A stretch of 64,000 bases of DNA from Escherichia coli (GTDB lineage Bacteria; Pseudomonadota; Gammaproteobacteria; Enterobacterales; Enterobacteriaceae), in assembly GCF_003334255.1 (NCBI RefSeq), contig NZ_QOWU01000004.1; one strand, 5' to 3'. Made by a program: the position numbers and the translations under genes. The notes under the pieces are model-generated. The model saw only the letters and a program-made list of their open reading frames with translations. It was not told the origin of the DNA and made no database searches. Shown here piece by piece: positions 1,108 through 8,794 of this stretch; position 1 is the first letter of the stretch, and every line of letters starts with the position of its first letter.

Positions 1108-2127
<1,020 letters not shown>

Positions 2128-3354
2128 TTATCCTTTTACGCACACCACCTGACGCAGGGTATAGATAACTTCCACCAGATCGCTTTGTGCCGCCATCACC
2201 GCATCAATATCTTTATACGCCATCGGGATTTCGTCGATCACTTCGGCATCTTTACGGCATTCCACATGCGCGGTGGCACGAATTTGATCTTCCACGCTGA
2301 ACAGTTTTTTCGCTTTAGTTCGGCTCATTACCCGCCCGGCACCGTGGCTGCACGAACAGAACGACTCTTCATTTCCCAGCCCACGGACGATAAAGCTTTT
2401 TGCTCCCATCGAACCGGGAATAATTCCATATTGACCAGCACGCGCAGACACCGCGCCTTTACGCGTCACGTAGATCTCTTCACCAAAGTGCTGTTCTTTT
2501 TGCACATAGTTGTGGTGACAGTTGATCTCTTCCATCGCCAGCGTTTGTGGCTGTCTGACCGTTTTCTGCGTAATGCTCTGCAATGCCGTTACCACGTTTT
2601 CCATCATCGCATCGCGGTTAAGGCTGGCAAAAAGCTGCGCCCAGGCCACGGCTTTCAGGTAATCATCAAAGTATTCCGTACCTTCCATAAAGTACGCCAG
2701 ATCACGCGACGGCAACGTCTCAAGCGTTTCCTGCATCTCTTTTTGTGCCAGATCGATAAAGTAAGTCCCGATGGCGTTACCAATTCCGCGTGAACCGGAG
2801 TGCAGCATAATCCACACCTGGTCCGACTCATCAAGGCAGATTTCAATAAAGTGGTTACCGGTTCCCAGCGTTCCCAGGTGTTTATAGTTATTGGTATTCA
2901 GGAAACGGGGATATTTTTGCGTTAACCACTGATAACCGGCTTCAAGCTCAGCCCATTTAGCATCGACGTTAACAGGTGGATTTTCCCAGGCACCTTTATC
3001 ACGTTTACAACGGCCAGTGGTACGCCCGTGCGGCACGGCCGTTTCAATCGCCTGACGCAGCTCTGCCAGGTTTTCAGGCAGGTCTTCCGCCGTTAACGCG
3101 GTACGCAGCGCGTTCATTCCACAGCCAATATCCACGCCCACCGCCGCCGGAATAATCGCCCCTTTGGTCGGGATCACGCTACCAATGGTGGAACCTTTAC
3201 CCAGGTGTACATCAGGCATTACCGCAATATGTTTGAAAATAAACGGCATCTTCGCCGTATTAATAAGTTGCTGACGCGCATCGGCCTCTACCGGCACGCC
3301 TTTGGTCCACATTTTTACCGGGGCATTTTCAGTGGTCAGTAATTCGTAATTCAT
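2128..3354 (-). CDS. rtcB: RNA-splicing ligase RtcB
   Basis: 408-aa ORF; translation recognised as RtcB; sigma54 promoter immediately upstream. Confidence 0.95.
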   Translation of the reverse strand: MNYELLTTENAPVKMWTKGVPVEADARQQLINTAKMPFIFKHIAVMPDVHLGKGSTIGSVIPTKGAIIPAAVGVDIGCGMNALRTALTAEDLPENLAELRQAIETAVPHGRTTGRCKRDKGAWENPPVNVDAKWAELEAGYQWLTQKYPRFLNTNNYKHLGTLGTGNHFIEICLDESDQVWIMLHSGSRGIGNAIGTYFIDLAQKEMQETLETLPSRDLAYFMEGTEYFDDYLKAVAWAQLFASLNRDAMMENVVTALQSITQKTVRQPQTLAMEEINCHHNYVQKEQHFGEEIYVTRKGAVSARAGQYGIIPGSMGAKSFIVRGLGNEESFCSCSHGAGRVMSRTKAKKLFSVEDQIRATAHVECRKDAEVIDEIPMAYKDIDAVMAAQSDLVEVIYTLRQVVCVKG

Positions 3355-3391
3355 TTTGTTTTTCTCTTTTCGTTGTTTGCTGTCCTGATAA

Positions 3392-3408
3392 TTGCAACCG
3401 TCGTGCCA
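3392..3408 (-). promoter_or_regulatory. sigma54 (-24/-12) promoter of rtcBA
   Basis: Minus strand reads TGGCAC-GACGG-TTGCA, a perfect GG-N10-GC sigma54 element about 40 bp upstream of the rtcB start; divergent rtcR encodes the cognate enhancer-binding protein. Confidence 0.85.
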
Positions 3409-3542
3409 GAAAATTAAATAAGCAGCTTAATTTTTTAATTCATTGTTTTAAAAAAGATTATATCTTTACGTCCGTAACCGGAGATTTCCCGCAAAGCCAA
3501 TTTACCGATAATGAAATATCGTCTTTTATAAGGATATCTAAG

Positions 3543-5141
3543 ATGCGTAAAACAGTGGCTTTTGGCTTTGTCGGTACCGTACTGGATTATGCCGGGCGCG
3601 GCAGTCAGCGCTGGTCAAAATGGCGTCCGACACTCTGTTTATGCCAGCAAGAATCGTTGGTCATCGATCGACTGGAATTGTTGCACGACGCCCGCTCGCG
3701 CTCGCTATTTGAAACGCTTAAACGCGATATCGCCAGCGTTTCGCCAGAAACAGAAGTGGTGAGCGTTGAGATTGAACTGCATAACCCGTGGGATTTCGAA
3801 GAGGTCTACGCCTGCCTGCATGATTTCGCCCGTGGTTACGAGTTTCAGCCAGAAAAAGAAGACTATTTAATTCACATCACCACCGGTACCCACGTCGCGC
3901 AGATTTGCTGGTTTCTGCTGGCAGAAGCGCGTTACCTGCCCGCCCGGCTGATACAATCTTCACCTCCGCGCAAAAAAGAACAGCCGCGCGGCCCAGGTGA
4001 AGTAACGATTATCGATCTCGATTTAAGCCGTTATAACGCCATCGCCAGCCGCTTTGCCGAGGAACGCCAGCAAACGCTTGATTTTCTTAAGTCCGGCATT
4101 GCCACGCGTAACCCCCACTTCAACCGCATGATTGAGCAGATCGAAAAAGTGGCGATCAAATCCCGCGCGCCGATTCTGCTTAACGGTCCAACCGGCGCGG
4201 GCAAGTCATTTCTGGCGCGACGCATCTTCGAGTTAAAACAGGCGCGGCATCAGTTTAGCGGCGCGTTTGTGGAAGTGAACTGCGCCACCCTGCGCGGCGA
4301 TACCGCCATGTCGACGCTGTTTGGTCATGTAAAAGGCGCGTTTACCGGGGCGCGGGAATCTCGTGAAGGTTTATTACGCAGCGCCAACGGCGGAATGTTG
4401 TTTCTTGATGAGATTGGCGAACTGGGCGCAGACGAACAGGCAATGCTGCTGAAAGCCATTGAAGAGAAAACCTTTTACCCGTTTGGCAGCGATCGCCAGG
4501 TGAGCAGTGATTTTCAGCTTATCGCCGGAACGGTGCGCGATTTGCGCCAGCTGGTTGCCGAAGGCAAATTTCGCGAAGATCTGTACGCGCGGATCAATCT
4601 CTGGACCTTCACCCTGCCGGGTCTACGCCAGCGCCAGGAAGATATTGAACCGAACCTGGATTATGAAGTGGAGCGCCACGCCTCACTCACTGGCGACAGC
4701 GTGCGTTTTAACACCGAAGCGCGGCGCGCCTGGTTGGCTTTTGCGACCTCTCCCCAGGCAACATGGCGCGGTAACTTTCGCGAACTTTCTGCCAGCGTCA
4801 CGCGGATGGCCACCTTTGCCACTAGCGGACGCATCACTCTGGACGTGGTTGAAGATGAGATAAACCGTCTGCGCTATAACTGGCAGGAGAGCCGCCCCTC
4901 CGCGCTTACGGCGTTGCTGGGCGCAGAGGCAGAAAACATCGATCTCTTCGACCGTATGCAACTGGAACACGTTATCGCTATCTGCCGCCAGGCAAAGTCG
5001 CTTTCCGCAGCCGGACGCCAGCTTTTTGACGTTTCGCGCCAGGGCAAAGCCAGCGTCAATGACGCGGATCGGCTACGCAAATACCTGGCGCGTTTTGGTC
5101 TGACGTGGGAAGCCGTGCAGGATCAGCACAGCTCCAGTTGA
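3543..5141 (+). CDS. rtcR: sigma54-dependent transcriptional activator RtcR
   Basis: 532-aa ORF with AAA+ sigma54-interaction motifs ([22 protein letters not shown]). Confidence 0.95.
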
Positions 5142-5881
5142 ATATGGTGGTCCGTCAGCACCTGCATCACGCTTACTGGCGGCGGGGCGTCGGTGTAGAC
5201 GGCATCTACCATGCTGATGCTGCCCATATTGACCATCGCGTTACGGCCAAATTTCGAGTGATCGACAACCAGCATAACGTGGCGCGAGTTCTCAATAATG
5301 GCGCGTTTGGTGCGAACTTCGTGGTAATCGAACTCCAGCAGCGAGCCGTCGCTATCGATGCCGCTTATCCCCAGAATGCCGAAATCAAGGCGGAACTGGG
5401 AGATAAAATCGAGCGTCGCTTCGCCAATGATCCCGCCATCGCGGCTGCGTAATTCGCCACCGGCGAGAATGATGCGAAAATCTTCTTTTACCATCAACGT
5501 GTTAGCAACGTTGAGATTGTTGGTGACAATGCGCAAATTGCTGTGATTGAGCAGTGCGTGCGCTACCGCTTCCGGCGTGGTGCCGATATCGCTAAACAGC
5601 GTCGAGCCATTGGGGATTTGCTCCGCCACTTTGCGGGCGATGCGCTCTTTTTCTTCGGTCTGGGTGGCCTTGCGATCGTGCCACGGCGTGTTAACCGAAC
5701 TGGAAGGCAGCGCCGCACCGCCATGATGGCGCAGGATCAGGTTTTGCTCCGCCAGCTCATTGAGGTCGCGGCGAATAGTCTGCGGGCTGACGGAGAAATG
5801 CTCTACCAGCTCTTCGGTACTGACATAACCCTGCTGTTTAACCAGTTCGATAATACCGTTGTGACGTTGTGTTTGTTTCAT
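5123..5881 (-). CDS. glpR: DeoR-family glycerol-3-phosphate regulon repressor
   Basis: 252-aa ORF recognised as GlpR; its 3' end overlaps the rtcR 3' end by 19 bp. Confidence 0.95.
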   Translation of the reverse strand: MKQTQRHNGIIELVKQQGYVSTEELVEHFSVSPQTIRRDLNELAEQNLILRHHGGAALPSSSVNTPWHDRKATQTEEKERIARKVAEQIPNGSTLFSDIGTTPEAVAHALLNHSNLRIVTNNLNVANTLMVKEDFRIILAGGELRSRDGGIIGEATLDFISQFRLDFGILGISGIDSDGSLLEFDYHEVRTKRAIIENSRHVMLVVDHSKFGRNAMVNMGSISMVDAVYTDAPPPVSVMQVLTDHHIQLELC

Positions 5882-5897
5882 TTATAAATCCCTGGAA

Positions 5898-6740
<843 letters not shown>

Positions 6741-6772
6741 TTATTCCACACAAAAGGGGACAGTATAAAGCG

Positions 6773-7177
<405 letters not shown>

Positions 7178-7237
7178 TTATACATATCACTCTAAAATGT
7201 TTTTTCAATGTTACCTAAAGCGCGATTCTTTGCTAAT

Positions 7238-7255
7238 ATGTTCGATAACGAACAT
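7238..7255. promoter_or_regulatory. GlpR operator in the glpD / glpEGR divergent control region
   Basis: Perfect inverted repeat ATGTTCG-ATAA-CGAACAT, matching the GlpR operator half-site (TGTTCGATAACGAACA) and overlapping a TAATAT -10-like hexamer upstream of glpD. Confidence 0.75.
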
Positions 7256-7288
7256 TTATGAGCTTTAACGAAAGTGAATGAGGGCAGC

Positions 7289-8794
7289 ATGGAAACCAAA
7301 GATCTGATTGTGATAGGGGGCGGCATCAATGGTGCTGGTATCGCGGCAGACGCCGCTGGACGCGGTTTATCCGTGCTGATGCTGGAGGCGCAGGATCTCG
7401 CTTGCGCGACCTCTTCCGCCAGTTCAAAACTCATTCACGGTGGCCTGCGCTACCTTGAGCACTATGAATTCCGCCTGGTCAGCGAGGCGCTGGCTGAACG
7501 TGAAGTGCTGCTGAAAATGGCCCCGCATATCGCCTTCCCGATGCGTTTTCGCCTGCCACATCGTCCGCATCTGCGCCCGGCGTGGATGATTCGCATTGGT
7601 CTGTTTATGTACGATCATCTGGGTAAACGCACCAGCTTGCCGGGATCAACTGGTTTGCGTTTTGGCGCAAATTCAGTGTTAAAACCGGAAATTAAGCGCG
7701 GATTCGAATATTCTGACTGTTGGGTAGACGACGCCCGTCTGGTACTCGCCAACGCCCAGATGGTGGTGCGTAAAGGCGGCGAAGTGCTTACTCGGACTCG
7801 CGCCACCTCTGCTCGCCGCGAAAACGGCCTGTGGATTGTGGAAGCGGAAGATATCGATACCGGCAAAAAATATAGCTGGCAAGCGCGCGGCTTGGTTAAC
7901 GCCACCGGCCCGTGGGTGAAACAGTTCTTCGACGACGGGATGCATCTGCCTTCGCCTTATGGCATTCGCCTGATCAAAGGCAGCCATATTGTGGTGCCGC
8001 GCGTGCATACCCAGAAGCAAGCCTACATTCTGCAAAACGAAGATAAACGTATTGTGTTCGTGATCCCGTGGATGGACGAGTTTTCCATCATCGGCACTAC
8101 CGATGTCGAGTACAAAGGCGATCCGAAAGCGGTGAAGATTGAAGAGAGTGAAATCAATTACCTGCTGAATGTGTATAACACGCACTTTAAAAAGCAGTTA
8201 AGCCGTGACGATATCGTCTGGACCTACTCCGGTGTGCGTCCGCTGTGTGATGATGAGTCCGACTCGCCGCAGGCTATTACCCGTGATTACACCCTTGATA
8301 TTCATGATGAAAATGGCAAAGCACCGCTGCTGTCGGTATTCGGCGGTAAGCTGACCACCTACCGAAAACTGGCGGAACATGCGCTGGAAAAACTAACGCC
8401 GTATTATCAGGGTATTGGCCCGGCATGGACGAAAGAGAGTGTGCTACCGGGTGGCGCCATTGAAGGCGACCGCGACGATTATGCCGCTCGCCTGCGCCGC
8501 CGCTATCCGTTCCTGACTGAATCGCTGGCGCGTCATTACGCTCGCACTTACGGCAGCAACAGCGAGCTGCTGCTCGGCAATGCGGGAACGGTAAGCGATC
8601 TCGGGGAAGATTTCGGTCATGAGTTCTACGAAGCGGAGCTGAAATACCTGGTGGATCACGAATGGGTCCGCCGCGCCGACGACGCCCTGTGGCGTCGCAC
8701 AAAACAAGGCATGTGGCTAAATGCGGATCAACAATCTCGTGTGAGTCAGTGGCTGGTGGAGTATACGCAGCAGAGGTTATCGCTGGCGTCGTAA
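7289..8794 (+). CDS. glpD: aerobic glycerol-3-phosphate dehydrogenase (FAD)
   Basis: ORF track 7274..8794; start trimmed to METKDLIVIGGGINGAG (501 aa) with an FAD-binding GxGxxG motif. Confidence 0.95.
   Translation: METKDLIVIGGGINGAGIAADAAGRGLSVLMLEAQDLACATSSASSKLIHGGLRYLEHYEFRLVSEALAEREVLLKMAPHIAFPMRFRLPHRPHLRPAWMIRIGLFMYDHLGKRTSLPGSTGLRFGANSVLKPEIKRGFEYSDCWVDDARLVLANAQMVVRKGGEVLTRTRATSARRENGLWIVEAEDIDTGKKYSWQARGLVNATGPWVKQFFDDGMHLPSPYGIRLIKGSHIVVPRVHTQKQAYILQNEDKRIVFVIPWMDEFSIIGTTDVEYKGDPKAVKIEESEINYLLNVYNTHFKKQLSRDDIVWTYSGVRPLCDDESDSPQAITRDYTLDIHDENGKAPLLSVFGGKLTTYRKLAEHALEKLTPYYQGIGPAWTKESVLPGGAIEGDRDDYAARLRRRYPFLTESLARHYARTYGSNSELLLGNAGTVSDLGEDFGHEFYEAELKYLVDHEWVRRADDALWRRTKQGMWLNADQQSRVSQWLVEYTQQRLSLAS

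Follow-up and report, generated by a model that had tools for sequence, protein, structure and literature searches.

Two regulatory genes of Escherichia coli meet tail to tail within the window, by which we mean the whole 64,000-nucleotide stretch of DNA that was analyzed. The first, rtcR, occupies 3543-5141 on the + strand and encodes the 532-aa sigma-54 activator of the rtcBA RNA-repair operon, an identification that draws on the open reading frame, on Pfam matches to RtcR (PF06956, 1.4e-85) and Sigma54_activat (9.4e-51), and on RefSeq. The second, glpR, occupies 5123-5881 on the - strand, is intact in the window, and encodes the 252-aa DeoR-family repressor of the glycerol-3-phosphate regulon, as judged from the open reading frame, matches to the Pfam models HTH_DeoR and DeoRC, and RefSeq. 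The genes glpG and glpE lie 5' of glpR on the same strand (5898-7099; open reading frames, RefSeq), with transcription running into the overlap described below. The three genes glpE, glpG, and glpR are established as one operon, glpEGR (Yang and Larson 1998).

The two coding regions share exactly 19 bp at 5123-5141, which read TCAGCACAGCTCCAGTTGA. The rtcR stop, TGA at 5139-5141, lies inside glpR, and the glpR stop, which is TCA at 5123-5125 on the + strand and TGA on the - strand, lies inside rtcR. Read on the + strand, the shared segment contains the last base of D527, the codons for Q528 to S532 of RtcR, and the rtcR stop; read on the - strand, it contains the last base of I247, the codons for Q248 to C252 of GlpR, and the glpR stop. 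Within the 19 bp, rtcR and glpR have their third codon positions at the same bases (5123, 5126, and onward in steps of three to 5141), which is the least constraining antiparallel phase and lets each of them still change synonymously.

The sequence, the open reading frames, Pfam, and RefSeq all agree that the preliminary description of this locus had the gene names, the coordinates, the convergent geometry, and the 19-bp overlap right, and the placement of each stop codon inside the opposing gene can be read directly from the sequence. The RefSeq annotation of strain 300709 gives the same rtcR/glpR pair with an identical 19-bp overlap, and that of MG1655 places rtcR at 3558268-3559866 and glpR at 3559848-3560605, again with the same 19 bp shared. 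The overlap is therefore already known, being part of the E. coli K-12 reference annotation. Both partners are real protein-coding genes, with thousands of GlpR homologues, RtcR homologues in 20 loci, Pfam matches, and RefSeq entries behind them. The first 28.7 kb of the window is 99.98% identical to K-12 MG1655, and a window coordinate equals the MG1655 coordinate minus 3554725 up to an indel in glpR, which allows published MG1655 data to be placed on the window.

Constraint on the shared bases and variation of the junction

The C-terminal end of GlpR is nearly invariant. Nearly all homologues 245-260 aa in length, down to 78% identity, end in [Q/H]LELC, which in the window is QLELC, encoded at 5126-5140 on the - strand. 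The same ending is kept across Enterobacterales, including species that have no rtc locus, which indicates that the end of GlpR is constrained independently of its adjacency to rtcR. In these rtc-less species, a spacer of 18-285 bp follows glpR on its 3' side before malT, nfuA, or malP is reached. The neighbor is malT in some of them, convergent at a spacer of 18-165 bp, and in others either nfuA, convergent at 48 bp, or malP, which points the same way as glpR at 285 bp; because the neighbor varies, the region downstream of glpR is a rearrangement-prone boundary.

RtcR presents the opposite picture at its own end. In an alignment of 15 taxa, conservation of the protein extends as far as ...L(T/D)WExV, near residue 525, past which the homologues of the 14 other taxa carry 2-10 unrelated residues. 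In the window, the last conserved residues (...LTWEAV) are followed by a DQHSSS tail, whose codons occupy 5121-5138 on the + strand; residues 527-532, encoded within the overlap, fall outside the conserved part. Judged by this alignment, the rtcR part of the overlap is a free, non-conserved tail. Three polymorphisms fall inside the 19 bp (5132, 5135, and 5138), all at shared third positions and all synonymous in both genes.

A search of genome contigs with RtcR returned 21 loci, Salmonella not being among them, and in the loci fetched, rtcR and glpR are adjacent only in Escherichia, Klebsiella oxytoca, Intestinirhabdus, and Superficieibacter, so the arrangement is sampled in only three genera outside Escherichia. 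The Escherichia species, E. albertii included, and K. oxytoca share the 19-bp overlap and the RtcR tail DQHSSS. Superficieibacter electus has an overlap of 4 bp (CTAA), with RtcR ending ...KEMAN, and Intestinirhabdus alba has one of 35 bp in a different frame, with the RtcR tail ISTAPAEYGDR. In I. alba, the frame is shifted by the loss of 7 nt where rtcR ends, immediately ahead of the glpR stop (positions 5560-5608 of the fetched locus L009), a natural case which demonstrates that the RtcR tail is dispensable. The end of GlpR is unchanged at every junction compared, whatever the length of the overlap. Neither the length nor the frame of the overlap is conserved between relatives (4, 19, and 35 bp). 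None of the 12 more distant full-length RtcR loci that were checked (Pseudomonas, Iodobacter, Accumulibacter, Desulfovibrio, and others) has glpR near rtcR.

The junction also persists in E. coli genomes that have lost most of rtcR. An 80-nt probe finds the junction in 5422 of 5426 complete E. coli genomes, and the body of rtcR (4100-4700) is present in 4859 of the same 5426; it is missing in about 570 of them (∼10%), nearly all of which keep the junction. About a tenth of the species is consequently without a convergent rtcR transcription unit. The sequences that we fetched contain at least four independent deletions at the rtc locus. One removes window positions 1525-4757 and leaves a 384-nt stub of rtcR, and a second removes 1248-5048 and leaves a stub of 93 nt; glpR is intact in both of these rtcR-deleted strains. 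A third is an in-frame deletion of ∼300 nt inside rtcR, at about 3738-4040, and the fourth, in NCTC11023, runs from malP into glpR, up to 5416, so that the C-terminal 97 codons of glpR are also gone. By this comparison, the rtc locus has been eroded repeatedly in E. coli by independent deletions.

The size of the overlap is what chance would give. For a + strand reading frame that enters the glpR antisense, the first stop comes after 19, 95, or 330 nt in the three possible frames, and the median length of a stretch antisense to glpR without a stop is 12 codons. Overlap between convergent genes is also seen elsewhere in the same region: two of the seven convergent pairs in the first 50 kb of the window overlap, according to the MG1655 annotation, the second being yhhA (31442-31882, + strand) and ugpQ (31869-32612, - strand), which share 14 bp at 31869-31882. 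Published counts of convergent overlapping pairs in E. coli are 58 (Lillo and Krakauer 2007, PMC2174442) and 75 (Huvet and Stumpf 2014, PMC4161906).

Transcript ends and RNA structure near the junction

The preliminary description had stated that the transcripts must overlap, and this holds by geometry, since full-length rtcR and glpR mRNAs are complementary over at least 19 nt. It had also allowed that the 3' ends might fall before the overlap; the sole recorded termination region lies beyond 5123-5141. In the bicyclomycin map of MG1655, a - strand region of Rho termination peaks at 3559514 (Adams et al. 2021, PMC7815308), which corresponds to window position 4789, ∼334 nt past the glpR stop and antisense to rtcR. 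The region has a Rho score of 8.9 (p 2.7e-27) and is classed as antisense to rtcR; reads upstream and downstream of the position number 154 and 29 without the drug and 153 and 256 with bicyclomycin (PMC7815308). The position of the Rho score is coarse, as it is derived from 800-nt windows (PMC7815308), and the data come from LB-grown MG1655, whose glpR is frameshifted, so that translation there protects the transcript differently from the way it does in a glpR+ strain such as that of the window. With a Rho region ∼334 nt inside rtcR, the RNA overlap is probably far longer than 19 nt, and a putative glpEGR read-through antisense to rtcR can be placed at 4789-5122 on the - strand, with the coarse Rho-score peak (PMC7815308) as its distal limit. 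Over MG1655 3559400-3560599, neither a curated Term-seq 3' end nor a Rho region on the + strand is listed, and the SMRT-Cappable-seq supplements (PMC6131387) have no entry for glpR, rtcR, glpG, or glpE.

An intrinsic terminator was not found at the junction. No G+C-rich stem-loop with a T run occurs just 3' of either stop, and a consensus promoter and terminator scan of 3300-7400 gave no terminator-like site at the junction; it gave seven such sites in all, against 5.8 expected from shuffles, the closest consensus matches being at 5494-5514 on the + strand and 4954-4940 on the - strand. An Rfam scan at E <= 1 had no match in 3000-7500, and the C/G composition shows no clear C-rich, G-poor rut-like bubble downstream of either stop. 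Local folding is unremarkable, with z-scores of -1.0 to -2.1.

One element upstream of the rtcR stop was considered separately. A perfect 9-bp GC-rich inverted repeat, CGCGCCAGG ... CCTGGCGCG, its arms 40 nt apart, lies at 5033-5098, inside rtcR and 45 nt before its stop, and is followed by TTTT on the + strand. A strong, extended stem-loop (5033-5090) folds on either strand in Escherichia, and in the - strand RNA it would lie ∼33-90 nt past the glpR stop. Weighed as a possible glpR 3' stabilizer or terminator, it was rejected as a selected structure, as Klebsiella, Intestinirhabdus, and Superficieibacter have disrupted pairs with no compensating change. Its covariation term is +1.67, and the region encodes the conserved C-terminal segment of RtcR.

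Origin of the overlap and competing readings

Taken with the conservation pattern above, the anatomy of the junction suggests to us that the overlap is very probably passive, an incidental tail-to-tail contact between two genes. The rtcR-rtcBA module occupies the interval from glpR to malT and abuts the glpR 3' end. Having no stop of its own before the junction, the rtcR frame runs into the glpR antisense and ends at the first in-frame stop, six codons in. This run-on would have added the dispensable DQHSSS tail to RtcR, with the C-terminus of GlpR as the constrained partner. Neither gene has room for an intrinsic terminator, and on the simplest reading the glpEGR transcript would pass its stop into the rtcR antisense and continue for a few hundred nucleotides before Rho ends it. 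Inside the glpR antisense, Rho would presumably end the rtcR transcript likewise. Such an overlap would carry no regulatory consequence.

The pair agrees with the class of short convergent overlaps formed by displacement of a stop codon (PMC2174442, PMC4161906). As in that class, both partners are genuine genes, they face each other from opposite strands with a few terminal codons in common, each open reading frame contains the stop of the other, and the shared bases fall in the poorly conserved tail of one partner, here a shifting, non-conserved extension of RtcR, with a length that varies between relatives. The junction of Superficieibacter is the classic 4-bp CTAA form, and the rtcR-glpR pair differs from the class in nothing material. 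An intrinsic terminator is present in 20% of the 116 E. coli genes in convergent overlapping pairs, and rtcR and glpR, which have none, resemble most of the genes in such overlaps (PMC2174442). As one of the 58-75 cases of a well-described class in E. coli, the overlap matters little in itself, and its value lies in being a clean textbook illustration of a conserved GlpR end set against an RtcR tail that is re-written whenever the junction shifts (4, 19, or 35 bp).

The Rho region also has a general counterpart. The ending by Rho of transcription that has passed a stop into the antisense of a neighbor is general behavior in E. coli. The rtcR entry is one of many "antisense" rows in the published table (PMC7815308), and nothing in this respect is specific to the rtcR-glpR locus.

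Some considerations weigh against an incidental origin. A modest interference effect is possible, the expression evidence being one published table, and the 19-bp form, fixed in Escherichia, also occurs in K. oxytoca, a pattern that could in principle be due to selection and not to descent.

The preliminary description had seen in the overlap scope for antisense or transcriptional-interference coupling between the RNA-repair regulator and the glp repressor. Here, convergent transcription or an RNA duplex would let glpEGR lower RtcR, or rtcR lower GlpR. Full-length mRNAs are necessarily complementary over their shared 19 nt or more, - strand transcription appears to reach ∼334 nt into the rtcR antisense before Rho acts, and E. 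coli offers a precedent in which an overlapping 3' UTR and 3' coding region mediate antisense control with RNase III (PMC10070815). That precedent, mscL-arfA (Morra et al. 2023, PMC10070815), is likewise a convergent pair with overlapping 3' coding ends and transcripts that could form a duplex. Its co-location is common across Gammaproteobacteria, however, and its regulation and RNase III processing were shown experimentally (PMC10070815), whereas rtcR and glpR are adjacent in some Enterobacteriaceae only, their overlap varies, and one partner is often deleted; conservation of the arrangement or of the overlap beyond shared descent was not found. The same observations, namely an overlap that changes in length and frame, an RtcR tail that is not conserved, an adjacency limited to some Enterobacteriaceae and absent at the 12 distant RtcR loci, a junction kept by the ∼10% of complete E. 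coli genomes without the rtcR body, and no conserved structure at the junction, argue against coupling and leave the proposal without support. The papers found that name both rtcR and glpR list the two genes and, by their titles and abstracts, give no functional link. RtcR and GlpR are both low-abundance regulators, so that encounters between polymerases should be rare, which also counts against coupling. We therefore regard this reading as improbable. If it were true, the locus would be one more cis-antisense pair and would tie glycerol regulation to RNA repair in an unexpected way.

A narrower form of the idea, which we consider a little less probable again, assigns the effect to read-through: the Rho-limited glpEGR transcript, several hundred nucleotides of it antisense to the 3' part of rtcR, might tune RtcR synthesis via polymerase collision or cleavage of the duplex by RNase III. 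How readily RtcBA RNA repair responds would then depend on glycerol or carbon status, or on Rho activity, and the 19-bp coding overlap would show no more than a small part of the arrangement.

Slightly less likely still is a bidirectional, collision-driven terminator, in which a hairpin in the overlap would pause both polymerases and give sharp, overlapping 3' ends. The two genes converge without any intergenic space, and a model of this kind has been described for convergent E. coli genes (bioRxiv 10.1101/2022.10.23.513370). The E. coli sequence allows a - strand hairpin of 10 bp that spans the glpR stop, within a 141-nt context that has z = -2.1 on that strand and z = -1.1 on the + strand. 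Its arms, however, are not kept in other Escherichia species or in other genera: the rtcR-side arm varies, none of the 12 predicted pairs shows a compensating change, and the covariation term is +0.34, so that we rejected it as a pausing or terminator element. Bidirectional terminators (Ju et al. 2019), as they are summarized in bioRxiv 10.1101/2022.10.23.513370, resemble the rtcR-glpR junction in being convergent, in having no canonical intrinsic terminator, and probably in overlapping transcription. In that summary they are Rho-independent, with a pausing hairpin and uniform 3' ends, whereas termination on the - strand of rtcR-glpR is Rho-dependent and lies hundreds of nucleotides downstream, with no conserved hairpin. 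In MG1655 in LB, Rho-independent sharp 3' ends are not found at the overlap, and the curated Term-seq data give no discrete 3' end close to the junction.

Finally, an annotation artifact, in which one stop or frame was mis-called and the genes do not overlap, can be set aside almost entirely, even though the preliminary description had named mis-called stops as a possible weakness, because both stops are read directly from the sequence, both frames are homologous over their full length to RtcR or GlpR up to the last conserved residues, and the RefSeq ends agree.

The glpR allele and the background of the window

The glpR gene of the window differs from that of the reference strain. In MG1655, a 1-bp deletion at window position 5731 makes glpR a pseudogene, and the window does not carry this deletion. 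At 5592, the window has C, as opposed to A in MG1655 and other genomes, which changes I97 of GlpR to S (FSDIGTT vs FIDIGTT) in the DeoRC sensor domain. A 66-nt probe for this variant has no exact match in the 5426 complete E. coli genomes, with a best identity of 98.5% in 1705 of them. The substitution may be another laboratory or lineage-specific glpR lesion.

Farther along, at ∼28703, the window is without 777 bp of MG1655 that make up IS1E with the yrhA target duplication. The window is 99.98% identical to MG1655 before this point and 99.24% after it, a drop that suggests a K-12-like but mosaic background.
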